The notes under the pieces: generated by a model | Databases searched by the model: none | Seen by the model: only the letters and a program-made list of their open reading frames with translations | What the model was told of the DNA's origin: nothing | Shown: positions 2,082-54,134 of the stretch, one piece after another | Layout: the number at the start of each line of letters is the position of its first letter | How positions within the stretch are numbered: position 1 is the stretch's first letter | Translations under genes and position numbers: made by a program | Assembly (NCBI GenBank): GCA_964527765.1 | Contig: CAZGQR010000003.1 | Coordinates: 6,156-70,155, forward strand | DNA: 64,000 nt | DNA from: an uncultured Planctomycetia bacterium | GTDB lineage: Bacteria; Omnitrophota; Gorgyraeia; Tantalellales; Tantalellaceae | Direction of reading: 5' to 3'

Positions 2082-3314
2082 CTATTTTTCCGCATGTTCT
2101 ACCTTGCTCGTAACGCAGCCGGACGCGAACCTTGTCTTGAGGAGGTCCCCCCGCCTCAGCCCCCTCGAGGCCTTGACCACCTTCCCGCCCTTAAAAGTAA
2201 TACTATACCCTCGCTTCAGCACTGACAAGGGGTTTAACATCTGCAGTTTTCCTGTTGCGGCGCTGAACTCTCCCTGCCTCAGTTCAAGCAAATGGGTGAC
2301 GCCGGAGGTGGCGGACCTGACCAGATCGTCCACCTGCTGGCCCAACTGCAAAAAGACGTTCATCGGGGTGCGGAGAACATAGCTCAAGCGGAGCCCGTCG
2401 ACCGTTTTTCTCATCATTTCAAGTTTTGTCTTAGCGACCAGGTATAACCGGTCACGGTATTTTTTTATCCGGCCGGCAAGTTCTTCCTTGAGCGGTATGA
2501 CCTGTTCGGCGGCCGCTGACGGTGTCGGGGCGCGAAAATCCGCCACAAAATCGGAAATGGTATAGTCTATTTCATGCCCGACCGCGCTTATGACTGGTAT
2601 CTCCGAAGCATATATCGCGCGCGCGACCATCTCCTCATTAAAGGGCCAGAGGTCCTCCAGGCTGCCGCCGCCGCGCCCGACAATGATCACCTCTATCGGA
2701 TGCTCCTCCTTGCCTTCTTCGCTGATCCAGCGGTTAAACTCGTTAAGCTCCCCGATAGCCCGGGCAATATCTTCTTTCGCTCCGTCGCCCTGGACCCGGA
2801 CAGGACATATTGAGATCTCAACATTGGTAAAACGCCGGCGGGCGACCTTCAGGATATCTCTTATGGCCGCGCCTGTCGGCGATGTAATAACACCGATATG
2901 CATCGGCAAAAAGGGCAGCGGTCTTTTATGTTCCTCGTCAAACAGTCCCTCCTTGCGCAATTTGTTTTTCAGCTGCTCGAATGCCAGCTGAAGAGCGCCT
3001 CTGCCGCGGGGTTCTATTGCGCTGACATACAATTGATACTGCCCGCGTTTGTCATAAACACTGATCCGGCCGCAGCACAGAACGCGCAATCCGTTTTCCA
3101 TGCTGAAAGCGACACGGGTGCTGTTACCCTTAAAAAGAACACAGTTAAGCAGGCCGCCGGCGTCTTTTAAACTAAAATATGCATGCCCCGCGGATGAAAC
3201 GGTAAAATTAGAAATCTCGCCCTCGACCCACACTTCCCGAAAGGTATCTTCCAGGACAAAACGTATATCCCTGGTAAGCTCGGTGACCGTGTAAACCTTC
3301 ACGTCTTCCATCAT
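2082..3314 (-). CDS. xseA: exodeoxyribonuclease VII large subunit
   Basis: 410 aa with an N-terminal OB fold and the catalytic domain (VIIVGRGGGSLEDLWPFNEE motif). Confidence 0.9.
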   Translation of the reverse strand: MMEDVKVYTVTELTRDIRFVLEDTFREVWVEGEISNFTVSSAGHAYFSLKDAGGLLNCVLFKGNSTRVAFSMENGLRVLCCGRISVYDKRGQYQLYVSAIEPRGRGALQLAFEQLKNKLRKEGLFDEEHKRPLPFLPMHIGVITSPTGAAIRDILKVARRRFTNVEISICPVRVQGDGAKEDIARAIGELNEFNRWISEEGKEEHPIEVIIVGRGGGSLEDLWPFNEEMVARAIYASEIPVISAVGHEIDYTISDFVADFRAPTPSAAAEQVIPLKEELAGRIKKYRDRLYLVAKTKLEMMRKTVDGLRLSYVLRTPMNVFLQLGQQVDDLVRSATSGVTHLLELRQGEFSAATGKLQMLNPLSVLKRGYSITFKGGKVVKASRGLRRGDLLKTRFASGCVTSKVEHAEK

Positions 3315-22684: not shown

Positions 22685-22758
22685 TGGCTGGCGGGCAAGG
22701 ACTCGAACCTTGACAAGCAGCTCCAAAAGCTGCGGTGCTACCATTACACTACCCGCCA
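22685..22758 (-). tRNA. tRNA-Gln (anticodon UUG), CCA encoded
   Basis: Cloverleaf folded by hand: 7-bp acceptor TGGCGGG/CCCGCCA, anticodon stem GCAGC/GCTGC with loop TTTTGGA, T-arm CAAGG-TTCGAGT-CCTTG. Confidence 0.8.
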
Positions 22759-33776: not shown

Positions 33777-35234
33777 ATGGTATTAAAAATACTTCGGAGC
33801 AGGAAATTCGCCAAAAGGGTGCTGTTGGGTCTGCTTATTCTCATTATCCCGGCCTTTATCCTCTGGGGGGCCGGCAGCGTCACAAAAGGCCCGGGACTGA
33901 TAGGCAAGATCGGCAAGCAAAAAATATATCTTAACGATTTTGCGAAAAGCAGACAGGGGATAAAGGTCCAGGTGCTCTTTACGTACTATGGGGACCTGAA
34001 CACCTTGAACCAGATACTGCAAAACCGCCCCATGATCAATTTCATGGCATGGGAAAGGCTTGTCCTCCTTAATGAAGCCAGGAGCAGAAAGATAAAGGTC
34101 GCCAATGATGATGTCCTGTCTTTTATTTCGCAGCACCCGCTGTTCCTGAGAGACGGCGCCTTTGATAAAGGGGTGTATAATTACATCCTGCGGAACAATC
34201 TTTCCGTGGGGCCGCGCCAGTTCGAAGAACTTGTAAGAGAGAACCTTCAGGTAAAACTATTGCGGCATGACCTGCTGAAAAATATAAATATCACGGAAGA
34301 AGACGTGCTGGAATATTACAGGACGATGAACGACCGGATCGAATTTTCCTACATGACGATCGATAAAGCCCCCTTTTCGGAAGACGTCACTGTATCGGAC
34401 GAGGAAGCCAGGGAATTCTACGAAGCGAACAAAGACAAGTTCTTCGAGCCCGCCAAGGTCGAGGTGGAATATATAGAGCTTTCGTACGAAAACGCTTCCG
34501 AGAAAAGCTCGGTCGCCGGCGAAATGGAAAAGATCTATCCGGAGCTCAGCAAGTTCCCGACACGATTCAGGCAGATAGCGGACGAGCACGGGATGCGCTA
34601 CGGCGACACCGGCCCCTTCTCGCGCAGGGACGCGATCCCCGGGATACCGTTCTTCAAGGACTTCCACGACATGGCTTTTGCCATGAAGGAAGGCGAAATA
34701 AGCCCTCTCGTATTCTCAGCGCCCGAAAAAGGATCGGCATACGTGCTGCGCAAAGTGCGGGATATCCCGCCCCGGCACCAGGGCTTTGAGGAACTGCGGC
34801 CGGATATCATGAAGAACCTCGCGGAAAGAAAAACCCTTCTCCTGGCCGAAAAAAAGGCGAACGAACTTCTTGCGAAAATGGCAGAAACGGGAGCGACCCT
34901 GGAAGAAACGGCAAGCGAGCTGGGGCAAGAAACGCAAAAGACCGAACCTGTCGCCTTCAGCGGGTATATTGAGAACATCGGCCCGGCGAAGGAGATCATC
35001 ATTCACGCGCATAAGACCGGACAGGGTAAGCTTATGCCTCCGGTGATCACGCAAAAGGGGGCCCTCCTCATGCGGGTAGACAATATCCTGCCGGCCGACG
35101 AGGCCGATTTTGAAGAGAATAAGGAGACTTTGCGCAGAAACCTCCTGATGCAGAAACAGGCGAACACTCTGGACAAATGGTTCAGGGAGGAAGCGCCGAA
35201 AGTAGAGTTGAAAAAAGCTCTGGAGGAACTGTAA
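33777..35234 (+). CDS. ppiD: PpiD/SurA-like periplasmic chaperone (N-terminal TM anchor)
   Basis: N-terminal TM helix plus SurA-N-like chaperone architecture. No clear parvulin catalytic motif was seen. Confidence 0.65.
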   Translation: MVLKILRSRKFAKRVLLGLLILIIPAFILWGAGSVTKGPGLIGKIGKQKIYLNDFAKSRQGIKVQVLFTYYGDLNTLNQILQNRPMINFMAWERLVLLNEARSRKIKVANDDVLSFISQHPLFLRDGAFDKGVYNYILRNNLSVGPRQFEELVRENLQVKLLRHDLLKNINITEEDVLEYYRTMNDRIEFSYMTIDKAPFSEDVTVSDEEAREFYEANKDKFFEPAKVEVEYIELSYENASEKSSVAGEMEKIYPELSKFPTRFRQIADEHGMRYGDTGPFSRRDAIPGIPFFKDFHDMAFAMKEGEISPLVFSAPEKGSAYVLRKVRDIPPRHQGFEELRPDIMKNLAERKTLLLAEKKANELLAKMAETGATLEETASELGQETQKTEPVAFSGYIENIGPAKEIIIHAHKTGQGKLMPPVITQKGALLMRVDNILPADEADFEENKETLRRNLLMQKQANTLDKWFREEAPKVELKKALEEL

Positions 35235-42717: not shown

Positions 42718-42792
42718 CGCGGGGTGGAGCAGAGGTAGCTCGTGAGGCTCATAACCTCAAGGTCGGCGGTTCGATTCCGCCCCCCGCAACCA
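42718..42792 (+). tRNA. initiator tRNA-Met (anticodon CAU), CCA encoded
   Basis: CGCGGGG...CCCCGCA acceptor with a C1:A72 mismatch and the CTCATAA anticodon loop. Near-identical in architecture to E. coli tRNA-fMet. Confidence 0.85.
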
Positions 42793-42805
42793 ACTTCACC
42801 AACCT

Positions 42806-43018
42806 CAGGGACGTTTCTCATTTTGTTCCTAGACCGTAAATTATTTTACTCCCAGACCTGTCCCTAAATTTGTTCTCAGACCTGTCCCTCTACTTATTCT
42901 CTAAATTATTGGGGACAGGTCTGAGATTGGCCTTGGGGACGGGTCTGAGATTGAATCTGGGGACAAATCTAGGTTTAGGATTTTGTGCGGTCTAGGTTTG
43001 ATTTGAAAAACGTCCCTG
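42806..43018. repeat. 213-bp element, bounded by inverted repeats, containing a complex repeat array
   Basis: 11-bp perfect IR CAGGGACGTTT/AAACGTCCCTG at the ends. Inside are two or three direct copies of yCAGACCTGTCCCT and three or four inverted copies GGGGACrGGTCTGAGATTG. The element fills exactly the gap between the tRNA-fMet 3' end and the giant-ORF stop. Confidence 0.6.
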
Positions 43019-43019
43019 A

Positions 43020-46000
43020 TTATGCTGCGGTGCGGATTTTTGTTTCCTGGGTTCTATATCTTTCACGCAGTTCTTCGAATTCGACAGGTATCGCTTTTGG
43101 AAGGATGAAAATGTAGATGTCGGGGAATCTTTCGTCTTTCTTTACTGTTATGCCAAAGTCCCCGCTGTCTATACCCGGATCAAAGGCAAGCTCAAAAGCC
43201 AGCGTCAGCATTTCCATGATATAACTGTAAGTATTTTCGGTCAAATTCCTATTGTCCACCCCCGCCAGGAAAATGTCCTTATCTTTTCTCAGGGCCTCGA
43301 ATTCCCCGGAGGTAACGGTATTTTCATGGGATAACACTATGACTTTCGCGTCTTCATTACCCTTCTTGGCTTTTTCGGTCTTTACGGCTGTCAGCAGGTC
43401 TTTATCTTCCCTGTCTATAAAAATTATGTTCTGCGACTTGCAGAAACCCCTTAAGGCCATTATCAGGCGGTTCAGGACCTGGTGCTGGAGAGATCCTTTC
43501 TTTTCATATCCTCTTATCCAATCCGTCCCGAGAGCAAAAATAACTTTCTCACCCGGTTTTTTCCTTTCAAATGCCCGGACAATAGCGGTATCAATAAAAT
43601 CCTGAGCGATCTTTGCATCCCTGTCAATAGCGTGCTCCTTTTCCCTGTCCTCGGCTTTGGCCCGCTCGGAACTGGGCGGCATAATGGATCGCCACTCCTT
43701 CAGTTGCCTGAACCCTTTAACATCATTTTTAAACCCTTTATAGCCGTACATTATGGTGAACAGCGCATCCGGCCGCGTATATCCTTCTTTGCGCGGCAGG
43801 ACCGCGGCAATCACCGCCTTATTCTTCACGACATGGAAGTTCTCGACCAAATCGCGCGCCTTTGCCTTTTCCTCTTTGAAAAACTCTTCCGGGAGAATAA
43901 ACCCTTCCTCTGCGATACGCCTGAGATATGTCTCGTACCCGCCCCCTCTCAGGGAAACCAGATAAAGAAATATGCCGTATTTCTCTATAATCTTCTCCGG
44001 GATGCCTTTTTTCTCCAGCTCTTCCCTGAACCCATCAAAACCGACAGCCGGACTGAACGTGCTTATATAAGGAACGTCATCAAAATGTGCTTTTGCTTTA
44101 TCTATAAACATCTGACCAAGGTTTATATTCCGGGTGGCATCGTCTTTTGAGGATCCTATCGCCCAGAAAAGAAGCGTATCAAAAGGACCTTTACCGGATT
44201 TTCCGCTGAACATGTTATCCCATAAAGGATATTCTTCGATTTTTGCAAGTTCGCCTCCCGTATTAAGCGGATAAGTAAGAAGAACGCCCCTGACCGGCTT
44301 TTCGATCCCCTTGATCTTCAATAGATAGACCATTTTTTGCCGTATAAGGTGCCGCATTTGCTCTTTTGTCAGTTGTAAAAATTTGCTCCTCACCCAGGAC
44401 TCGTTATGGACGGAAAGAGCCTCGTCCAGTTCGGCTGCACCGGCCTGCGTGATCTCCGTTACTTCCCAGTTTATTATGTTGCATAGTGATCTGCCTAATC
44501 GCCCTTCGTACAATTTCGATTCATCCGGCGAGGCAATTGTCCGGAAAAGATATTCGTCAACCAGTTCCGGCGGCCCGTGATTCTGCAACCAGGCGATCAC
44601 ATCGGTGGCAAGAAAGAGTTCCCCGGCTTCCGCATCGTTCCGGTACAGGATAAAATCATCGGGTGATTCCATTATGGACTTAAAGCCGTATATCTTATAT
44701 TCCTTCAGCTTCTCCAGCTGATCCTGCAATCGGCTTCTGTCTTCATGGGATAATTCTTCTCCTTTCAGGGCATCTTTAAACAAGCTGATTATTTTATCCT
44801 TATATTGCCCGGTAATATCGTTCTGTCTCGTTTCCGAAAGCTGAGACCTGAATTTCCCGCGGGCCCCTGCGGTTTCGTCGTCCGCGCGGAGGTTATCTTC
44901 CTCGGGCTGCGGAAGGGGAAGATTCGGCACGGTCACCGGACCTTCGAAGGGAACCATCCCGTTTGGCCCGTATTTGATCACAAAATCATTGGGCTCAATG
45001 CCGAATTCGCGCAGTTTCGAGACAAGCCCCAGTTCCTTCATCAGGTCAAACGTGGCTTTCTGATTTCTGGAAAACCGGAATATCAACGTCAGGGTATCTT
45101 CCAGCCTTTCCTTCATATAAGGATCTTCTTCCCATTGATAAGTTTCGGCGCATTCCTTTATCAGCTTTTTGGTCTGCGGCGTAAGTTCAAGATCAAATAG
45201 ATCGATAAATTGGACAGCCCGTAAAAATTGCGGCATGTGCAGGTTCTCCGGCGCTATTTTTTCTTTCTCGCCTGTCTTTTTGCCTACCAGGCGCGCCGCT
45301 TTCCTCTTGAAATCCGCTATCCCCCCGTGTATATCTATGAGTTCTATCTCATCCCCTACTATCTTGAATCCGATCCTGTTCATGGACAGATCCGCCATCG
45401 GATCCGGCTCTATGTTGCCTTCTTCGTCAAGCACGCCCAGAACATCTATCGGAAAACCCCGGAAATTAAGGAACGCTTTTTCGAAGAGCCTGTAGGGAAT
45501 ATCCTCCACTTCTATCCTGTTACCTGCCTTGCTCAGCGCAAATGCAAGGTCGGACATGGTATCCCACGTGTTTACGCCCGTCTTTTCCTGTATGGCCTCT
45601 TTTTCAATAACAATGTCAAAATCCGACGGCGTCTTGTTAAGCAATAAGCTCCTTACCGCGCCGCCATAGATGATAATGCGGCTCAGGTCATTTCTCCTGA
45701 GGAACTGTAAAAATGTCTTAACTATTCCTTCCGGAAGCTCGTCGATCCTGAACCTGCTGCCATGGCCTAGATCTTTTCTTTCCATCAAAGGCAGTTTCCT
45801 GGGCCTGGTAAGAAATTCTTCCCTCTGAAGTTCTATCTCTTCATCCAGCGTTGCCGCGAATTCCCAGGCCTTGTCGGGCTCGAAAATGAACCATTCAAGA
45901 AAGTCCGGCGAATGCGTTGTCTGCATCCCGATGATCTTGAAGAAGGCCCTTCTCGCCTGGGGACGGATGAACACCCTGCCTTCCCCGCCTTCCCTCAAGC

Positions 46001-49000
46001 TTATGTTGATCAGGCTTTCGACCATCCGTCTGCCGACGCCCCTTAACTTTCTTCCTTCCTTTTCCCTTTCCGTATTATGGCGGGCGACCTCCAGGATCTT
46101 GATGCAAACACCGGGGCCCAGACCATACCTTCCTTCCCTGTCCATCTCATAGACGCATAATGCCTCCAGTATCCCTTTCGCGGTATAGGCCTTCAGGACT
46201 TTGTATTTTTCGTCAACGTTCTTCCATTGATCGTCTTTTTTCATGAACTGCGTGAACCATCGGAACATCTTGGTGTATTCGCCCTGTATGAGCTGATGCA
46301 CCTCATCGGAATCCGCCGGCTCTATCCAGATCTTTATCCTGTCCCCGCTTTTGGCCCCCATGACGAAAGTGGATACTGCGCCTTCCTCTCTTTCCTGCGC
46401 TTTCTCCTTTTCTTCCGGCTGATGAGAAATGGGCGTTTCGAACTGTTGGGAAGGAAACATGGTAACGGATATTTTTGTCTCGTTCGGGTCCGATTCGAAG
46501 AGGTCGGCATGGTTCCCGGCCGGGTCATGATAATACCTTACGCCTTTGCCCCTGCTGGCGCCTTCCACCGTAATGTCATCGATCCGCCCGAGGCGCCTGA
46601 GGCCCGACAGAAAAACACCTCTCACCGATTCAAGGGTGCTCTCCGGGGACACATATTTTCTTCTTACCCGTGGTTTTTCAAACGCATCGGGCACCGGTAT
46701 GCCCCTGCCGCGGTCCACGGCCATGATACGCACGCCCACCGTGCCGTCCGCCCTTTTGACCTTTTCGATCCTGAAATAGAAATCAGCTTCGGGCTGCGCG
46801 AGTGAAACGAACTCCTGCATGTTCTTGACCAGCTCACCGAACAGAAATTCCGCCAGTTGCGCGCGGTTGCGGAAATCCTGCGGAACGACCGGCGCAACGC
46901 CCGGGTCAAAGCCGATGGGTTCCCTGGCATCCCCGGGGCTTAAGGCCTTGAACATCTCCATTGCCTTGCGGTTTTTGGCATCAACGGTCGGGCGGCGCAA
47001 AGGCGATTCCGCTTCTTCCTTGGTTACGACGACTGAATCCAGAACCGAAAGATCTTCGGGCGGCTGTGCGTGACGGGAAACTATATATTTTTTCTCGAAT
47101 TCGCCCTGGTCAAGTCCGGATCGACCGGAGAGACGCTCCTCTATTATATCCCTCAAAGCCTTTCCCAATAATCCCTTGTACGGGGTGAATTTAAGCTGCT
47201 CCTGAAGTTTTCTTTTATCGGGATAATTGTCGGGAAAAAGGTCCTGCTGGACTAAAATGGCGTTGTAATGGCCCAGGAAGGGGCAGAGAAGTTCGTGCAG
47301 CAGATATTCGTCGACAATGGCCGGAGAACCGCGGTTTTCCAGTTCGGTAATAACATCAGTGGCAAAGAACAGTTCTTCTCCTTCATCATTCCGCCCCAGG
47401 AAAAAATCGTCCGGTCCGTTTACAATAGACTCAAAGCCGTATATCCTGGTCTTCCCTTTCCGCAGTCCCTCCAGCAGGCCCTTCAGGGATATTCTCTCGT
47501 ACTGCGGTATCTCAAGCTGCGGCAGGTCGATCATGCCCGATAACCGTACTATCCTGTCCCTGTATTCGTCCGTAATATCGTTCTTTTTGATATCATCAAG
47601 CCGTGACAGGAATTCTTTCAGCGGATACACGCCCTGCCATATAAAACCGTCGGGCCCCGCATTGCCGGGCATTATTGCCGAAAATGCTTTCTTCAATCTC
47701 GTGTTTTTGGCAATTCTATCTATGATATTCTTGCAGACCCCAAGGACCGAAGATTCGCTCATGCCATACCTGTCCATCAACTCCCTGGTTGTGTCATCAT
47801 CAAAATACTTTTCCTTGAAGATCTGTATATCCCTTTCCTTGTGCCTGGTATCCGGAAGGACCTCCTTCAGAAGGTCCAGAAGCTCCTTTATTTCTTCATC
47901 GGTCAGCGCCGTGAGCCGACCTCTGCGGAAAATATGATCGGCATCTTCCTTAATGGGACCGGTCAGACTTACTTCTCTATTCCTTTTGAGGCGCCTGTAA
48001 TGATCCATTAAGGCATTTTGGAAAGCCGCCTGAAAATACGGCACGAATATCTCGTGCTTGTGATCTCCGAACGCCAGCACCGTCTTCATGAGAACATCGT
48101 TCAGAAGGTCGGACAGGCCGTGATCCCCGATATCATCCTTATGATTATTCATTACGCCCTGCACGGCATGTTTGCATACGGCATGAAGAGCGACGAAACT
48201 GGCCTTGTTGCCCGTTTCCGCATCCAGGGCCAAGGCGACTATATCGGCGTTGGTTAAGCTGCCAAAATGCCGTTTGACAAATTTTTCAAGGCCGTGGGGC
48301 AGATCTTCGTATCCCCTGTACCTGTGCAACAGCTCCTTCGTCTTTGACCAGCTGTCCTCTGTAAACCTGAGCTCCTTTCTTCTTAAGGGCAGGAGGTTCC
48401 TTATCCCCAGATGTTTCTTGATTATTCTGAGAGCCCTGTGAAAAGAACCTCTGCCGGAAAGCCCGTTCATTCTCACGTAAAACGTTAGAAGGCCGGACAG
48501 TGATTTGCCGCCGAACGCCTCAAGCTGTTTGGCAAGATCGACCGTATCCACTTCCCCGGATTTTTTACCCGCCTCCCGCGCAAGTATTTCCACAAGATGA
48601 CGGCGGGCCTCCTTCATTACCCTGGGCCACCTGATCTTCTTTTTCCTGAATTCTTCCAGCACGGTGTCGGGGCCTATAATTATGCCGCCTTTTTCAAGCT
48701 TTTCTCTGGCGGCTTTTGTCTCGGCGCTGGCGGGTTTTGCGCCAAGATCCTTAAGGATGGATGTTACGATCTCCAATTCAACAGGTTTCAAGACCATCGC
48801 CCGGTATACCGCGCCCCTGCCGCTCCCTTTTCTTTCCACAAGGCCGAGACGGTCCAGCACCCCCAGGTCGCGTTTTATTGTATGTTCCATCGACAGGCCG
48901 CTCTTTCCGGCGATATCCTGAGCCGAAATAAATCTGTTTTCCGCCCTGAGGATCTCGAACGTGTTGTAGGGCGAGCCTTCGGAGGTCGGCGGCACTGCGC

Positions 49001-52000
49001 CGGGCTCCGGGCGCTTTTTGCCGATCATGATGCCGTCCACTTCCTTTATAAGCTCGGTCAGAAGTCTATCGCCGGCGTTTTCCTTCTCGGATAGTTCCTT
49101 GTACTTTTTTAAGGCCCTTACCAGCTTATTGATTTTTCTCGTCGGTTTTCTTCTCTTTTTGTCGGGCAGTTTGCGGAACGTCGATTTTATGCTCTCCAGC
49201 AGAGTGACACACAGGGCATATACATCGTCCCTGGGCAGGCAAAGTTCTCTTGTCGGGGTATCTTCGGCTTTGACCCTGTTGATCCTGTCCCCGCTCATGT
49301 AATACCCTTTGGTGAACCATTTCCGGATCTTGTTTATCCTTCCCCCCTTGTCCAGCGGGGTCACGGTGTCATTATCGACATACACCACTCTTTTTAACGC
49401 TCCGTTATCTTCCACGGCCATGATCGCGGTGGGGTCGATATCGCCGTGAACATACCCGTTATTCAAGTAGGTCTGCCTGTATCCTTTCAGGGTCTTTTCC
49501 GCCAGGTCAAGAAAGGCCGATTCTACGGCACGAAGGGGCCTCAGGCGCAGCGCCCTGGCATGATCTTCCAGGGTCCTGCCGTCAATGAATTCAAAAAGAG
49601 GCACTTTCTTGCTTGAAAACCCGTCCATGCCGTCCGTGGGGACCAGGCCGATGAACTTGGGCAGGCAGGGGTTTGTATTCGCGGGGTTTATGAAGGAAAG
49701 GATCTCGACCTGAGGCAGCAGGAAGATCTCCAAATTGCCGTGCCGATGGCCATACAATGTCGAATCTTTCGTAATATAATAATTGCCCTTTTTGAGCTCT
49801 ATCGCGTTGGTGAGGATCTTATCTTCCCCGACATATTCGTATTTCCGCAACACGGAATTGCCCGTTTTAATAAGCCCGGTAAATTTAAAATCTCTTTCAA
49901 AATTCCTTATGCGGGGGACCCTGCTGACCGCTTTCCGGACCGCCTGAACATCCTTTTCGGGGGGTGCGGCGCTAAGCGTGATAATGGAAAATAAACGTCG
50001 GCGGAGCCTTTCCTTTGCTGCTCGTTTTTCCCCGGCGGAAGGCCGCGGGCCGAGCTTTTTAAGGACGGGTTCCGCGATCTCCCATCCTGCCGGGCTCAGT
50101 TCCATCGCCCTGAATATGGCGTAATCGCCTTCACCGTCCTTTTCGACCAGACCGAGAAAAACGAGTGTCCCCAGGTCGCGTTTTACCACTTCAAGCGAAA
50201 GATGCCCGTCTGGCATCCCTCCTTTCGTTTCCAGCCGGATCTGCTCGGCAAAGGCAAAGCCTTCTTTTGCCCGCAGGATCTCGAACATGCTGCATGGAGA
50301 GCCTTCGGCAGGCGGATCTTCACGCTGCAAACCATCTCCCCTGCCCGATCTCGCCTTCTCCTTGGAAATTATATAGGCCCTTGAATTGCTGACCAGGCCG
50401 AATGAGTCTGCGGAAACCGCCAGTCCCGTTTTTTCGCTCAGCAGTTCCTCCACATACTTCAAGTAGCTGTTGACCAGAACCGCTTTGCCGCCATCGGTCA
50501 TATGTTCAGCTATATTTGCGGCGACCCGCTTCAGGACCGCTTCGCCAAAGTCCTTTACGTTCCTGTCATCGGGCGTTATCAGCCCGGTACCCAGGTCCAC
50601 ACTGCTCCCGTGCGGCATGGTTATATGCGGCATGTTGAATATGATAAGGTCATACTGACCCAGCCCGTCGAACAGGTCATTGCGAAAGGCGTTTACCCTG
50701 CTCCCGGCGCCTCCCAAAGAACAGGTGAGCTTCGTGTTCTCCACCGCCATCTCTTTTATGTCCACCGCGTCTACAAAAGCCCCTTTCTCGGCGGCTATGC
50801 GGGCCTCAAGCCCGCTGCCCGTCCCGATGACCAGCACCTTCATCCCGGGTTTGGCGTATTTTAAGGCGGCTTTCGCGCTTACTTCGCTTGAGGGGTTGAC
50901 GCCGGTATAAACACCCGGCAGAACAGGAATGCTTAAAACCGTCATACCCGGCGGGTATGCTTTGCCGTCGGTGGGCGGGGCGGACTTTATCTCGATCAAT
51001 TCTCCGGAATTATCGAACATGGCATACGCGTAAGCGGACTTAAGAACCCGGGGCCAGAAATCGGGGAACAATTTCTTCTTTCTTTTTTTCGCGGATTCCG
51101 CTTTCCTCTTGTCGCTGTCCCCGTAATAAACGGACAGGTCTATGACCACGGGGTCCTTGCCTGTTCTTTGCAGGCTTAAAAACAGAGGTTTATCGTTATG
51201 GTTCACTATCGACAGGGCCCCTTCCAGCTCATCCTTCTCCAAGACCCTGAATGCCGTCCTGATCGCGTAACTGTTGAGTTTTTCCAGCGGCACCTCGGCA
51301 ATGTCGAACCCTTTTTCCCTTCGCCACTCCAGTTTCGCGGGAACAATACCCAATGCCCTGAAGATCCTGCTCGCGACTTCAGAAAATTCCGCGGGCGGCT
51401 GGATCAGGTGAAATTCCAGCGTTATCATCGTGCCGGCAGTGATATCGCTCGTGCCGCTCTGGGCGAACCAGAGCCCGGCATTCTCGTCCGTGCTGATCCC
51501 GGTCCACTTCTCGCCATACGCTTTTCTGCCTTTCGACTCGATCACGACATGATCCGGATCGAACGCTATCCTTTTGAAGCCGAAGCCCCTGAGCGCGCCT
51601 TCCGCGGCTTTGATGCTGTCCCTGACCAGTTCGTTCGGATCACGCGTCAGGCCTTCTCCGTTATCCACGGCAACGATCTTCAGGCCGGTGATCGCGCCGG
51701 ACTTGTCCCTTCCGGCGTACACCCGGATGACACCTCCCCTGCCGTGTTCCATGATATTGCGCGCCAGCTCGTTGAGAACGTCGTCTATGCTGACTCTTTT
51801 ACCTTCCGGAACTTCTTCGATGCTCTTGATGAATTTTCTTATTTCGCCGGACACAAAATCCTCATGGGCTTCGGTAATAATGCCCGGCATCTCAAGCTCA
51901 AACACGGGTCCGGCCGGGTCGGGGGCCTTGCGTTTTATCCCCGCCCATTTCCTTGCCACGACCTTGGTGCCCCCGTGCTCCATTTCCGCGTCCCTGGCCT

Positions 52001-54134
52001 TTTTCGTCTTGAACCATTGCCGCCCCCGGGACAAGATCTCCACATAGTCCATATCCCTGACCAGCCTGGTCAGGGCCATTCCCGCGCTTCCCCCTGTTTT
52101 ATCCAGGGAAACCCCCTCTTTCACCGCCAGGGCGATATCCCTTATCCCTTTTCCGTTATCCAGGGCGACTACCTCTACACCTCTGCCTTTTTTCTCGCTG
52201 TATATCCCGCGTGCCAGGAGCACCCCGAATCCGGTTACCACATGCTGTTCCACGTTTTCCGCCAGGCCCACAAGAGACCTGATCACCTTGGAAGCTTTTA
52301 TGTCGCTCAGGCCTAAATTTTTTACCAGACCGGGGATATTTGTCTTTTCCACAATCGCTACCGCTTCTGACGGCTTCATGCTCAACAGTTTCTCGATCTT
52401 TCTCCTGCCCCGCCTGCCGACAAAAAGAGCCCACCTGAACCCGTAAAAACTTTCAAGAACGCACAAACTTTCCTTGAGAGCTTCTTCGTTCATATCACAC
52501 AACGCCTGCCAGGCCCTGCCTATCAGGTCCTCAGTCGGTATGATTTCTTCCGGCGCGGTCGCGGCATCCCTCGCGGCGAAGGGCTTCTGCCTTATCCTCA
52601 GGTCCCAGCCATAACCGCTGCTGTTCCCCGCCAGGAACGCCGGCACCATCAGCGTAAGCAGGATCCGGTGCTTGATATCCTCGATCTCGGGGTCCTTGAT
52701 CTCCTTAAGAGAGATCGGAAAGTCAGGGCCTTTGTCAAAATAGGCCATGTCCTCCGGGACACACACGTAATCGTCCGTAATAAGGTACCCGCCCGGTCTC
52801 ATTTGTTCGTAGATGCGGCATATGAAACTGCCCCATCCTTTTTCATAGTCCTTGGCGGTTTCATTGGCGGCTCTCTGATAATAAATATCGATCCTTTCCC
52901 CTTCGAGCATTTCTTCATATTGGCGGGGCCTGGTGATATCGGCATTTATGAACGTTATCGAATAGGTCTGTTCCTTTGCGCCCCTGTACTGCCAGTCAAA
53001 CGTTATGCGGGGATGGCCTTGATCCGAATCGACCTTCACCGTCGAAAGATCCACCCCTATCGCTTTCAGCTCAAAAGCGATCGCCGCGGTGATCTTTCTC
53101 CTGTTCTGAAGCGTCCCGCCGTTGGCGAAACCCCACTTGAATTTTTCGCAGTAAAGATCGGCGTTGAAATATTTTCTCAGGTATTCTTCGGGACCATCGT
53201 CCTTAAAGCACTTCTTGAGTTCCGATTCCGAAAGCTGATAGAAAATGCCGCTATAATCCGAGATGAAATATCCCCTGGTCGCGTTGGTCGAAAGAAGAAA
53301 GTTCGAGATGTCGGCGCCGGCGGCGCCGTAAACCGCCGTCAGGGGCCTGTTGTCCGGGTTCACGAATCTCTTTATCGCCATGCCGTGCTCGACATGCATT
53401 CTCTGGAGAAGGCCCGCATTGATCGGGCGATAGTCGATCTGTTTCTTCCCATCAAGGGGTGAAGTTTTTTCCGTCTCCGGAAGCGAGGCTTCTTCCGCCC
53501 GCGGGAACGGGGTTTTCCCCCGGTCTTTTTGTCCGGCTGAGATACCTTTTTCCGGCACGATCCGGGAAGATATGGCGCCCCACCCTTCACACATGATCTT
53601 TGCATCCCCGATCTCGATGGGTATTGCGGCTCCGCCGCGAGATTCAAGCGGTTCATCTCCCGGCAAGTAATAGCGGAGGGTCACCGTTTCGGGGCTTCCT
53701 TCTCTCTTGTAGGGCAGGCAAAAAGTGTTTCCTTCTTTATGCAATTCCTGCCATTTAAAGCTTTCGAAATCTATATGCGAGATGTGCTTCTTAAGAAGTT
53801 TTTCCCTGAGGCCATCCGCGCTTATCATGCTTCCGGACTGGGCCAGCACCTGCCCTATTAAAATGCTGAGATAAATGAACCCGGCATCCTCCTGGAAATC
53901 TTCTTTGGCTCTCGATCCCGCCGCTTCATTTTCATTAACAATGACCTGGCCGCTCTCGCGCACTTTCACGCTGATGATGGGGCTGAGTCTCGAAGGAGGA
54001 GAAAGGGTGTGGACGCTTTCCCGCGCCGCGCCGGGCTCGAGCGCGTAGGAAATGTTGCTGAAAACGAACAGGCATATTATGCCCGCCGATACGGCCTTGA
54101 ACCACAACTTGTGCGTATTGAAATATCTTTCCAT
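43020..54134 (-). CDS. giant multidomain protein (3704 aa), function unknown
   Basis: A single uninterrupted 11.1-kb ORF. The N-terminus is a signal peptide or signal anchor. Motif-level evidence supports GHKL kinase, SAM methyltransferase, wHTH, kinase-like, ECF sigma, class II nucleotidyltransferase and duplicated modules; see findings. Confidence 0.85.
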   Translation of the reverse strand: MERYFNTHKLWFKAVSAGIICLFVFSNISYALEPGAARESVHTLSPPSRLSPIISVKVRESGQVIVNENEAAGSRAKEDFQEDAGFIYLSILIGQVLAQSGSMISADGLREKLLKKHISHIDFESFKWQELHKEGNTFCLPYKREGSPETVTLRYYLPGDEPLESRGGAAIPIEIGDAKIMCEGWGAISSRIVPEKGISAGQKDRGKTPFPRAEEASLPETEKTSPLDGKKQIDYRPINAGLLQRMHVEHGMAIKRFVNPDNRPLTAVYGAAGADISNFLLSTNATRGYFISDYSGIFYQLSESELKKCFKDDGPEEYLRKYFNADLYCEKFKWGFANGGTLQNRRKITAAIAFELKAIGVDLSTVKVDSDQGHPRITFDWQYRGAKEQTYSITFINADITRPRQYEEMLEGERIDIYYQRAANETAKDYEKGWGSFICRIYEQMRPGGYLITDDYVCVPEDMAYFDKGPDFPISLKEIKDPEIEDIKHRILLTLMVPAFLAGNSSGYGWDLRIRQKPFAARDAATAPEEIIPTEDLIGRAWQALCDMNEEALKESLCVLESFYGFRWALFVGRRGRRKIEKLLSMKPSEAVAIVEKTNIPGLVKNLGLSDIKASKVIRSLVGLAENVEQHVVTGFGVLLARGIYSEKKGRGVEVVALDNGKGIRDIALAVKEGVSLDKTGGSAGMALTRLVRDMDYVEILSRGRQWFKTKKARDAEMEHGGTKVVARKWAGIKRKAPDPAGPVFELEMPGIITEAHEDFVSGEIRKFIKSIEEVPEGKRVSIDDVLNELARNIMEHGRGGVIRVYAGRDKSGAITGLKIVAVDNGEGLTRDPNELVRDSIKAAEGALRGFGFKRIAFDPDHVVIESKGRKAYGEKWTGISTDENAGLWFAQSGTSDITAGTMITLEFHLIQPPAEFSEVASRIFRALGIVPAKLEWRREKGFDIAEVPLEKLNSYAIRTAFRVLEKDELEGALSIVNHNDKPLFLSLQRTGKDPVVIDLSVYYGDSDKRKAESAKKRKKKLFPDFWPRVLKSAYAYAMFDNSGELIEIKSAPPTDGKAYPPGMTVLSIPVLPGVYTGVNPSSEVSAKAALKYAKPGMKVLVIGTGSGLEARIAAEKGAFVDAVDIKEMAVENTKLTCSLGGAGSRVNAFRNDLFDGLGQYDLIIFNMPHITMPHGSSVDLGTGLITPDDRNVKDFGEAVLKRVAANIAEHMTDGGKAVLVNSYLKYVEELLSEKTGLAVSADSFGLVSNSRAYIISKEKARSGRGDGLQREDPPAEGSPCSMFEILRAKEGFAFAEQIRLETKGGMPDGHLSLEVVKRDLGTLVFLGLVEKDGEGDYAIFRAMELSPAGWEIAEPVLKKLGPRPSAGEKRAAKERLRRRLFSIITLSAAPPEKDVQAVRKAVSRVPRIRNFERDFKFTGLIKTGNSVLRKYEYVGEDKILTNAIELKKGNYYITKDSTLYGHRHGNLEIFLLPQVEILSFINPANTNPCLPKFIGLVPTDGMDGFSSKKVPLFEFIDGRTLEDHARALRLRPLRAVESAFLDLAEKTLKGYRQTYLNNGYVHGDIDPTAIMAVEDNGALKRVVYVDNDTVTPLDKGGRINKIRKWFTKGYYMSGDRINRVKAEDTPTRELCLPRDDVYALCVTLLESIKSTFRKLPDKKRRKPTRKINKLVRALKKYKELSEKENAGDRLLTELIKEVDGIMIGKKRPEPGAVPPTSEGSPYNTFEILRAENRFISAQDIAGKSGLSMEHTIKRDLGVLDRLGLVERKGSGRGAVYRAMVLKPVELEIVTSILKDLGAKPASAETKAAREKLEKGGIIIGPDTVLEEFRKKKIRWPRVMKEARRHLVEILAREAGKKSGEVDTVDLAKQLEAFGGKSLSGLLTFYVRMNGLSGRGSFHRALRIIKKHLGIRNLLPLRRKELRFTEDSWSKTKELLHRYRGYEDLPHGLEKFVKRHFGSLTNADIVALALDAETGNKASFVALHAVCKHAVQGVMNNHKDDIGDHGLSDLLNDVLMKTVLAFGDHKHEIFVPYFQAAFQNALMDHYRRLKRNREVSLTGPIKEDADHIFRRGRLTALTDEEIKELLDLLKEVLPDTRHKERDIQIFKEKYFDDDTTRELMDRYGMSESSVLGVCKNIIDRIAKNTRLKKAFSAIMPGNAGPDGFIWQGVYPLKEFLSRLDDIKKNDITDEYRDRIVRLSGMIDLPQLEIPQYERISLKGLLEGLRKGKTRIYGFESIVNGPDDFFLGRNDEGEELFFATDVITELENRGSPAIVDEYLLHELLCPFLGHYNAILVQQDLFPDNYPDKRKLQEQLKFTPYKGLLGKALRDIIEERLSGRSGLDQGEFEKKYIVSRHAQPPEDLSVLDSVVVTKEEAESPLRRPTVDAKNRKAMEMFKALSPGDAREPIGFDPGVAPVVPQDFRNRAQLAEFLFGELVKNMQEFVSLAQPEADFYFRIEKVKRADGTVGVRIMAVDRGRGIPVPDAFEKPRVRRKYVSPESTLESVRGVFLSGLRRLGRIDDITVEGASRGKGVRYYHDPAGNHADLFESDPNETKISVTMFPSQQFETPISHQPEEKEKAQEREEGAVSTFVMGAKSGDRIKIWIEPADSDEVHQLIQGEYTKMFRWFTQFMKKDDQWKNVDEKYKVLKAYTAKGILEALCVYEMDREGRYGLGPGVCIKILEVARHNTEREKEGRKLRGVGRRMVESLINISLREGGEGRVFIRPQARRAFFKIIGMQTTHSPDFLEWFIFEPDKAWEFAATLDEEIELQREEFLTRPRKLPLMERKDLGHGSRFRIDELPEGIVKTFLQFLRRNDLSRIIIYGGAVRSLLLNKTPSDFDIVIEKEAIQEKTGVNTWDTMSDLAFALSKAGNRIEVEDIPYRLFEKAFLNFRGFPIDVLGVLDEEGNIEPDPMADLSMNRIGFKIVGDEIELIDIHGGIADFKRKAARLVGKKTGEKEKIAPENLHMPQFLRAVQFIDLFDLELTPQTKKLIKECAETYQWEEDPYMKERLEDTLTLIFRFSRNQKATFDLMKELGLVSKLREFGIEPNDFVIKYGPNGMVPFEGPVTVPNLPLPQPEEDNLRADDETAGARGKFRSQLSETRQNDITGQYKDKIISLFKDALKGEELSHEDRSRLQDQLEKLKEYKIYGFKSIMESPDDFILYRNDAEAGELFLATDVIAWLQNHGPPELVDEYLFRTIASPDESKLYEGRLGRSLCNIINWEVTEITQAGAAELDEALSVHNESWVRSKFLQLTKEQMRHLIRQKMVYLLKIKGIEKPVRGVLLTYPLNTGGELAKIEEYPLWDNMFSGKSGKGPFDTLLFWAIGSSKDDATRNINLGQMFIDKAKAHFDDVPYISTFSPAVGFDGFREELEKKGIPEKIIEKYGIFLYLVSLRGGGYETYLRRIAEEGFILPEEFFKEEKAKARDLVENFHVVKNKAVIAAVLPRKEGYTRPDALFTIMYGYKGFKNDVKGFRQLKEWRSIMPPSSERAKAEDREKEHAIDRDAKIAQDFIDTAIVRAFERKKPGEKVIFALGTDWIRGYEKKGSLQHQVLNRLIMALRGFCKSQNIIFIDREDKDLLTAVKTEKAKKGNEDAKVIVLSHENTVTSGEFEALRKDKDIFLAGVDNRNLTENTYSYIMEMLTLAFELAFDPGIDSGDFGITVKKDERFPDIYIFILPKAIPVEFEELRERYRTQETKIRTAA

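Follow-up and report, generated by a model that had tools for sequence, protein, structure and literature searches.

Omnitrophota giant proteins rank among the largest proteins known. They carry many unrelated enzyme domains (10.1101/2023.11.21.568195; 10.64898/2026.06.07.730766), and the published domain catalogues emphasise sugar-active enzymes, methyltransferases, GHKL ATPases and GNAT domains. A PolyA_pol-type module is unmentioned in the main texts of both studies and has no searchable entry in their supplementary tables.

Class II nucleotidyltransferases have exactly three carboxylates, exemplified by D55, D57 and D99 of TmCCA (PMC3925840). In CCA-adding enzymes as in poly(A) polymerases (PAPs), the choice of CTP and ATP is made by an EDxxR motif (PMC2532741, PMC3925840); the reliance of PAP on this motif is seen in an R215A mutant, in which A-specificity is lost (PMC2532741). 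The body and tail domains of CCA enzymes hold the acceptor and T-arm of the tRNA (PMC3925840). Here we describe how a divergent relative of these enzymes, located inside a giant protein of a probable Omnitrophota bacterium, compares with both groups.

A nucleotidyltransferase domain inside a giant protein

The window, that is, the whole stretch of 64,000 nucleotides analysed here, contains an uninterrupted open reading frame for a protein of 3,704 aa (43020..54134, minus strand), an identical copy of which is found on a 213-kb ENA metagenome contig. A whole-protein search retrieved 19 homologues of 2,244-6,480 aa; wherever organism names were given, these were Candidatus Omnitrophota or Omnitrophica. 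Residues 225-517 form a conserved module common to all 19. Sharing such non-enzymatic modules with proteins from Omnitrophota genomes, starting with a signal-like or anchor segment and containing numerous unrelated enzyme modules (a methyltransferase, a GHKL ATPase-like module and others), the protein is recognisable as an Omnitrophota-type mosaic multi-enzyme giant. The enolase encoded in the neighbourhood was uninformative on taxonomy: its best matches, at 71% identity, are MAGs labelled "uncultured bacterium", and many phyla follow at 63-68%.

Residues about 2793-3052 of this protein (44979..45758, minus strand) are a truncated, divergent head and neck of the class II polymerase-beta nucleotidyltransferase superfamily, about 260 residues long including an N-terminal extension. 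The original prediction of a class II domain of CCA-enzyme/PAP type within the giant protein is genuine. The span first given, 45135-45707, does equal residues 2810-3000, but the full domain is somewhat larger; the four peptide strings on which attention had been drawn are all present in the reading frame, at residues 2819-2844, 2914-2923, 2936-2951 and 2961-2980. The Pfam model PF01743 (PolyA_pol, gathering score 23) matches above threshold, with 24.8 bits for the entire protein and 30.3 bits (E 6e-7) for the domain by itself. The best PDB match by phmmer is the CCA-adding enzyme 6ibp (E 9.6e-6), and a profile search of the PDB with the domain leads to CCA-adding enzymes at E 8.7e-15. A hidden Markov model built from canonical CCA enzymes only gives the domain 70.6 bits (E 3e-21) and matches nothing else in a six-frame translation of the window, which led us to reject chance similarity. 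When the subfamily described below was aligned with the canonical profile by hhalign, the probability was 99.5% (E 1.3e-22) over template columns 8-241 of 425.

The predicted structure agrees with this assignment. With the domain sequence alone AlphaFold gave an unusable model (pLDDT 55), and we used instead the model from a 12-sequence alignment, with a pLDDT of 80.7 and a pTM of 0.77. The best 46 Foldseek matches of this model in the PDB are all class II CCA-, A- or CC-adding enzymes or PAP. Profile match, head-and-neck fold, and motif A with the third carboxylate together place the domain in the PolyA_pol-head superfamily. A PolyA_pol-family match is present and the catalytic carboxylates are kept in alignment with CCA enzymes, and neither observation contradicts what had been proposed.

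Motifs kept and lost

We compared the domain with a canonical alignment (A4) of 24 sequences that has 19 invariant positions. Motif A, YGGAVRS...SDFDIV, occupies residues 2823-2842 (45609..45668, minus strand) and includes the catalytic D2838 and D2840. G2824, G2825, R2828, D2838, D2840 and D2897 fall on canonical motif A or third-carboxylate positions in the alignments, so that both aspartates of DFD are conserved, as had been anticipated, and the aligned third carboxylate as well. The GGxVRD...DxD motif originally read here holds for GG..R and DxD but not for the D of GGxVRD, the near-invariant D32 of A4, where the domain has S2829. The putative third carboxylate, D2897, lies in a beta strand, FPIDVLG (residues 2894-2900; 45435..45455, minus strand). 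It pairs with the glutamate of the canonical [IV]E[IV]xxxR in both hhalign and MAFFT, and the AlphaFold model has a strand around it, at domain positions 115-123; phmmer alone favours E2875. The choice of D2897 thus depends on alignment and predicted structure. Motif C, IDIHGGIADF (residues 2933-2942; 45309..45338, minus strand; canonical D..GG..D), is conserved, its D162 (domain numbering) being invariant across the subfamily, and motif E retains ER.

The residues that handle the nucleotide fare differently. Motif B is degenerate: MADLSMNR (residues 2913-2920; 45375..45398, minus strand) stands in place of the canonical RRDFTINA, retaining D, S/T and N but neither arginine, while R113 and R114 are invariant in A4. 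The proposal that ADLSMNRIGF is a RDFTINA-like neck motif consequently does not hold at the level of function. At the motif D position, APENLHMPQFLRAVQF (residues 2961-2976; 45207..45254, minus strand), only the LRA arginine is kept. E156, D157 and R160, which make up EDxxR and are invariant or nearly so in the 24 canonical sequences, become M, P and Q by hhalign; by phmmer D becomes N and the position of R is ambiguous. The check on the nucleotide-selecting residues that had been suggested earlier thus came out negative in both alignments. In total, about 7-8 of the 19 invariant positions are altered by a by-eye count from the alignments, the clearest losses being R113 and R114 of motif B and D157 and R160 of motif D, all of them nucleotide-binding; the near-invariant D32 and E156 are altered likewise.

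These losses bear on the strong form of the original label, namely that a genuine CCA-adding or repair enzyme for tRNA, or a PAP, has become fused into the giant protein. CCA-adding enzymes and PAP are indeed the best database matches, and a tRNA gene adjoins. However, the EDxxR template for the selection of CTP and ATP is missing, and so are the body and tail: the profile match goes no further than template column 241 and is followed by a repeat module of the giant protein, and of the Pfam models, PolyA_pol scores above threshold while neither PolyA_pol_RNAbd nor tRNA_NucTran2 matches the giant protein or the domain. The NCBIfam models score far under their cut-offs as well (PcnB models TIGR01942, 29.2 bits vs 305.65, and NF008634, 12.5 bits vs 702; CCA model, 14 bits vs 290). 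Moreover, both tRNA genes of the window encode their own CCA. We therefore consider this reading very improbable. Since EDxxR, the motif B arginines and the tRNA-binding body and tail have been lost, the domain is not a tRNA-maturation enzyme, and naming it a CCA enzyme or PAP is unwarranted.

The adjoining gene, an initiator-type tRNA-Met, lies 228 bp past the stop codon of the giant gene on the opposite strand. A functional link between the two was rejected on account of the opposite strand, the encoded CCA and the absence of tRNA-binding parts from the domain. The adjacency is best read as coincidental, as had been suspected, for nothing connects the giant gene with the tRNA.

A small subfamily and the question of activity

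None of the 19 whole-protein homologues carries the nucleotidyltransferase domain. A library of 1.84 billion proteins yielded a single close copy, in P0021, a paralogue or orthologue of 6,375 residues, at 37-38% identity (E 7e-44); the flanking modules are 52% identical. The module upstream (residues about 2590-2770; 45825..46367, minus strand; 52% identity to P0021) forms with the domain a collinear cassette that is also found in P0021. A GNAT-like label for this upstream module, suggested by eye from LRGVGRRM, is not claimed, as sequence searches of Pfam and the PDB gave no match to it. Downstream lies the repeat module (residues 3094-3203; 44526..44855, minus strand), which is paralogous to residues 2160-2340 of this protein (internal phmmer E 3.6e-24); it is 52% identical to P0021 and is present in P0014 too.

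More distant relatives comprise the stand-alone proteins P0031, P0044 and P0066 (about 265-277 aa) and modules in P0023, P0029, P0035, P0037, P0088 and P0090. Apart from P0021, the members of this subfamily are 20-26% identical to the domain and differ among themselves in catalytic residues. The subfamily scores at or below the threshold of Pfam PolyA_pol, and its members share with the domain the length of head and neck, a helical insertion after DxD, a strand of the form F.G..I[DEQ]..G and an N-terminal extension (..IP...h..FL.FL...). The last of these, GSRFRIDELPEGIVKTFLQFLRRN (residues 2792-2815; 45690..45761, minus strand), is specific to the subfamily and common to P0021, to the six other modules and to the three stand-alone proteins, with F29 and L33 (domain numbering) invariant or nearly so. 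A word-indexed homologue search gave no match with the domain alone, and with the subfamily profile it returned seven ordinary CCA enzymes and nothing else. There were no confirmed relatives among GTDB species representatives (searched by alignment of the cassette) or JGI metagenome contigs (by alignment of the domain). These comparisons expose a small uncharacterised branch of the CCA-enzyme/PAP superfamily, which consists of just the head and neck with an added N-terminal element, lacks EDxxR and is represented by free proteins of about 265 residues as well as by modules within very large proteins.

Is the domain still an enzyme? The relatives point both ways. In P0021, DFD has become TID and the third carboxylate N, so that two of its three catalytic carboxylates are gone, as is one of the two glycines; at least one lineage can therefore do without catalysis. 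In 5 of 12 sequences of the wider subfamily, Q replaces the third carboxylate. In the domain itself, the triphosphate- and base-binding RR and EDxxR and the D of VRD are missing, and it evolves faster than its neighbouring modules, the lower conservation between the two giants (38%, against 52% for the flanks) speaking against an active module. A pseudoenzyme, in which the fold was kept for binding (of a nucleotide or an RNA end), scaffolding or structure and no longer performs nucleotidyl transfer, is therefore a serious rival, which we regard as possible though somewhat doubtful. Against it, the domain keeps three carboxylates, GG..R, all of motif C and, in motif B, D/S/N, which would be unexpected after long neutral drift at 38% identity, and the stand-alone members P0031, P0044 and P0066 hold the same triad, in the context FxGxxIDxxG.

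We are modestly inclined to a rare nucleotidyltransferase cargo module that may still be active, on a substrate unlike those of CCA enzymes and PAP; this preference draws on the conserved motifs and on the modelled fold. On this reading, the Omnitrophota-type mosaic with its signal-like start carries the domain as one enzyme module among many. The domain would take up a Mg-nucleotide and pass its nucleoside monophosphate on to an acceptor hydroxyl, the simplest candidate being an RNA 3' end, with a choice of nucleotide and acceptor presumably different from that of CCA-adding enzymes and poly(A) polymerases; any recognition of the substrate would have to come from neighbouring modules. The giant-protein repertoire may in this way gain an activity directed at nucleic acids or nucleotides, from a class II module whose predicted metal site is intact. 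This protein, with its triad intact, and P0021, with its triad lost, lend themselves to a natural comparison of a putatively active with an inactive form in experiments. Nothing is overturned by these results, since the fold is well known and domain shuffling is expected in such proteins.

Possible export and comparison with known systems

The giant protein begins with a signal-peptide-like or anchor segment (residues 1-33; 54036..54134, minus strand), conserved in P0021, which holds the sole strongly hydrophobic 19-residue window of the protein (Kyte-Doolittle 1.86). The cleavage site, placed between MERYFNTHKLWFKAVSAGIICLFVFSNISYA and LE, is a by-eye reading rather than a tool prediction. 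A second, weak hydrophobic stretch is found at residues 86-104. On the basis of this hydrophobic N-terminus the earlier description of the protein as probably non-cytoplasmic is reasonable. The genes adjoining the giant gene belong to purine biosynthesis, enolase and Rnf, with no secretion genes among these neighbours. PADLOC defence-system models on the giant protein match the methyltransferase region only, not the nucleotidyltransferase.

Nucleotidyltransferase toxins are known to block tRNA acceptor ends. By analogy, the domain might be an exported effector or toxin module that alters RNA 3' ends in a host or prey cell; together with the upstream module, it would tag or block such ends, for example tRNA acceptor ends, in the archaeal or bacterial cell on which the Omnitrophota bacterium lives. 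This is consistent with the signal-like N-terminus and the lack of a further strong hydrophobic segment, with proposals in the literature that host or prey cells are the targets of Omnitrophota giant proteins, and with P0025, where a class II head within a cell-surface (SLH) protein shows that such a location is possible. Many modules of the giant protein also depend on SAM, ATP or NTP; these cofactors are cytoplasmic, and once exported the protein would meet them only within another cell. However, the neighbouring genes have no secretion functions, and an uncleaved anchor that leaves the bulk of the protein in the cytoplasm is also conceivable, with the weak hydrophobic stretch as a further consideration. 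We consider both the effector module and its extension to the cassette unlikely. If they were true, an Omnitrophota giant protein would for the first time be credited with an activity that modifies nucleic acids, and the CCA-enzyme superfamily would gain a new, minimal branch that is non-templated.

Whatever its substrate, the possibly active cargo module can be set beside known enzymes position by position. It shares with the class II tRNA nucleotidyltransferases of T. maritima (3h37), A. aeolicus (4wby/1vfg) and P. halocryophilus (6ibp) the GGxVR..DxD motif A, the third carboxylate, the motif B core D-x-[ST]-x-N, the motif C hinge D..GG..D and the ER of motif E. Unlike them, it lacks body and tail, EDxxR and the motif B arginines and has VRS for VRD, while it adds the N-terminal extension and, after motif A and before the strand with the third carboxylate, a helical insertion. 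Nor does it have the RNA-binding and arginine-rich C-terminal regions of PcnB (3aqk/3aql). NP_344798.1 (PDB 2la3), an uncharacterised stand-alone "CCA-adding enzyme head domain" of 191 aa, consists of a head only, and its similarity is far weaker than that of full CCA enzymes. The class II tRNA nucleotidyltransferases are free enzymes of about 400 residues, whereas this domain sits at residue about 2800 of 3,704. With the Omnitrophota giant mosaics ("Archaeovorin-type"/multi-enzyme; West-Roberts et al. 2023; Nielsen and Lui 2026) the protein shares an N-terminal signal or anchor followed by a chain of enzyme modules, at 3,704 aa against the far larger 10-147 kAA of the giants in 10.1101/2023.11.21.568195 and 10.64898/2026.06.07.730766.

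A class II nucleotidyltransferase module in a giant protein

A single, uninterrupted open reading frame on the minus strand of the window (43020-54134) encodes the giant protein of 3,704 residues, which recurs residue for residue on a 213-kb contig of the ENA metagenome assembly ERZ27256778. The span 45135-45707, where the original prediction placed a CCA-adding enzyme-like domain, corresponds to residues 2810-3000, and the four peptide strings quoted from it are all found (residues 2819-2844, 2914-2923, 2936-2951 and 2961-2980). The alignments set the limits of the nucleotidyltransferase (NTase) domain at residues ~2793-3052 (44979-45758, minus strand). GC3 drops along the gene (~0.68 immediately before the domain, 0.57 within it, 0.50 at the C-terminus), a mild heterogeneity that is compatible with module shuffling without being diagnostic.

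The similarity to nucleotidyltransferases is real, as Pfam, phmmer, HMM, hhalign and a structural model with Foldseek agree. PolyA_pol (PF01743) matches residues 2822-2946 with 24.8 bits in the whole protein, above the gathering score of 23, and the excised domain with 30.3 bits (E 6e-7); NCBIfam and PHROGs gave the same family with sub-threshold scores. The best phmmer match among PDB sequences was the Planococcus CCA-adding enzyme (E 9.6e-6), with E. coli poly(A) polymerase (PAP) next and the Thermotoga and Aquifex enzymes after it; a PDB profile search reached E 8.7e-15. An HMM made from 24 canonical CCA-type enzymes only, to which the giant protein contributes no information, scored the NTase stretch at 70.6 bits and no other part of the 64-kb window, translated in six frames. 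Aligned by hhalign, the profile of the divergent subfamily formed by relatives of this domain matched the canonical profile over 224 columns (probability 99.5%, E 1.3e-22). An AlphaFold model from a single sequence was unusable (pLDDT 55); the model from a 12-sequence alignment had a mean pLDDT of 80.7 and a pTM of 0.77, and its best 46 Foldseek matches in the PDB were all class II CCA-, CC- or A-adding enzymes or PAP.

Residues kept and lost

In class II enzymes the beta sheet of the head bears three carboxylates (D55/D57/D99 in TmCCA, D31/D33/E74 in AaL), an Asp/Arg template in the neck reads CTP and ATP, and body and tail domains grip the acceptor and T arms of the tRNA (PMC3925840, PMC2532741, PMC8563995). 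Motif A of the giant protein keeps G2824-G2825 and R2828, and both predicted catalytic Asp residues are in place (D2838 and D2840 in SDFDIV). MAFFT and hhalign both align D2897, in FPIDVLG, with the [IV]E[IV]xxxR carboxylate of canonical enzymes, and a strand lies at this position in the 12-sequence model. phmmer instead aligns E2875 (RIEVED) to the third carboxylate; because the RIEVED segment is of low confidence and not a strand in the model, we prefer D2897 as the probable third carboxylate. The motif C hinge (IDIHGGIADF) is whole, and the LRA arginine and the ER of motif E are kept.

The RRDFTINA-like neck motif survives in part: it reads MADLSMNR, with D, S and N kept and both arginines gone. 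The Asp of GGxVRD is replaced by Ser. The nucleotide-selecting EDxxR template is lost, since hhalign pairs E, D and R with M, P and Q, and phmmer pairs D with N, the R position being ambiguous. At these lost positions the 24 canonical sequences show no or almost no variation. Homology by hhalign reaches only as far as column 241 of the canonical profile's 425 and Pfam gave no PolyA_pol_RNAbd match, so the body and tail are absent; after the domain comes a repeat module (residues 3094-3203) paralogous to residues 2160-2340.

The domain thus has the class II head-neck fold; its metal-binding triad and its hinge appear complete, and the family's base template, the motif B arginines and the RNA-holding domains are missing. 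Genuine CCA-adding or poly(A) polymerase function is very unlikely. We lean towards a module that may still transfer a nucleoside monophosphate to a hydroxyl acceptor in a Mg-dependent reaction, and whose substrate specificity would differ from that of CCA enzymes or PAP.

Relatives of the domain

When 1.84 billion representative proteins were scanned exhaustively with HMMER, 71 matched at E<=1e-3, of which one alone, P0021, fell below 1e-30. Scans of GTDB species representatives and JGI metagenome contigs gave no further close relatives, and this NTase module is therefore rare. P0021 (6,375 residues) is collinear with the giant protein across most modules at ~40% identity, and the two have in common an N-terminal segment and a cassette of upstream module, NTase and repeat module. 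The upstream module (residues ~2590-2770, 45825-46367) shares 52% identity with P0021 and matched nothing in Pfam or among PDB sequences; an R-G-V-G-R-R stretch within it recalls the acetyl-CoA motif of GNAT proteins.

In P0021, motif A reads FAGTSRS...GTIDIV and the third-carboxylate strand FPVNCVG, with two of the three carboxylates and one glycine lost. Identity to the giant protein is 38% in the NTase domain and 52% in the flanking modules. The main rival to retained catalysis, that the domain is a pseudoenzyme, draws on this loss of the triad in the only close relative, on the faster divergence of the domain than of its flanks and on the missing nucleotide-binding residues; we regard it as a real possibility, though a less probable one than retained transfer activity.

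The more distant matches have in common a distinctive N-terminal extension and, after DxD, a helical insertion; most of them score at or below the Pfam threshold. They comprise P0023 (7,840 aa, two copies), P0037 (fused to HEAT repeats), P0035, P0088, P0029, P0090 and the free proteins P0031, P0044 and P0066 (265-277 residues). DxD and the I-D-x-x-G carboxylate are intact in the free proteins, and Q occupies the third-carboxylate position in the P0023-like group. The remaining HMMER matches are ordinary CCA enzymes of ~400 residues. Two or three tandem canonical PolyA_pol heads occur in P0025 (1,453 aa, ENA), P0022 and P0026; in P0025 three such heads accompany S-layer-homology domains, an arrangement that implies a cell-surface location for class II nucleotidyltransferase heads.

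Host protein and genomic setting

A whole-protein search retrieved 19 homologues of 2,244-6,480 residues, those with names being labelled Candidatus Omnitrophota or Omnitrophica; the NTase domain occurs in 0 of the 19. They share with the giant protein the N-terminus, short repeat modules, the C-terminus and a ~290-residue module (residues 225-517, 52584-53462). Every one of the 19 has this module, some of them (P0003, P0004, P0012) two or three times over; it has no Pfam match and appears to be the signature of this giant-protein class. Their other domains are very diverse (glycosyltransferases, SecA-like, methyltransferases, GNAT, PEP-utilising, radical SAM, HAD). The giant protein itself has a tool-supported HemK/PrmA-like methyltransferase (residues ~1077-1239), an ECF-sigma-like segment (residues 2007-2143, 27 bits), weak GHKL/anti-sigma-kinase-like segments (two GHKL-like internal paralogues, residues 620-740 and 790-876), a weak ABC1-kinase-like segment, and internal paralogues at residues 1277-1380 and 1719-1815, winged-helix-like by eye only, without tool support.

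Its only strongly hydrophobic segment (residues 14-32) resembles a signal peptide, with basic residues ahead of it and SYA|LE after it. With a weaker hydrophobic stretch at residues 86-104, both exported and cytoplasm-facing topologies are possible, and published readings of giant proteins are split in the same way (10.64898/2026.06.07.730766). An exported effector that modifies RNA ends inside a host or prey cell is improbable.

The giant gene lies in ordinary core chromosome, with purB, purM, purD, purE and SHMT on one side, a pfkB-family kinase, enolase, purN and Rnf on the other, and BamA, LpxB, DnaB, FtsH and RNase Y more distant. The tRNA gene remarked on as its neighbour is present: tRNA-Met (42718-42792, plus strand) lies 228 bp past the stop codon on the opposite strand, an adjacency treated as coincidence because the NTase domain lacks tRNA-binding parts. 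The acceptor stem of tRNA-Met is topped by a C1xA72 mismatch, the signature of bacterial initiator tRNAs, and the genome encodes its CCA end, as it does for tRNA-Gln (22685-22758). Between tRNA-Met and the stop codon (42793-43019) lies a long imperfect palindrome, its 84-nt arms (42805-42888 and 42936-43019) 71% complementary and each made of three tandem ~24-nt units (e.g. TTGGGGACAGGTCTGAGATTGGCC); it may serve as a bidirectional terminator or a protein-binding array, or be a repeat element. The gene at 33777-35234, ~8 kb from the giant gene, encodes a SurA-like chaperone that includes a Rotamase_2 PPIase domain; West-Roberts et al. reported that a Rotamase_2 PPIase is conserved in the vicinity of Omnitrophota giant genes (10.1101/2023.11.21.568195).

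The giant protein has the architecture described for the Omnitrophota 'Archaeovorin-type' or multi-enzyme giant proteins (10.1101/2023.11.21.568195; 10.64898/2026.06.07.730766), the main texts of which do not mention a class II-type nucleotidyltransferase. The class II fold and its catalytic chemistry are well established, and multi-enzyme giant proteins have already been described in Omnitrophota; what is new is their combination, a minimal, template-less class II branch serving as a rare cargo module.
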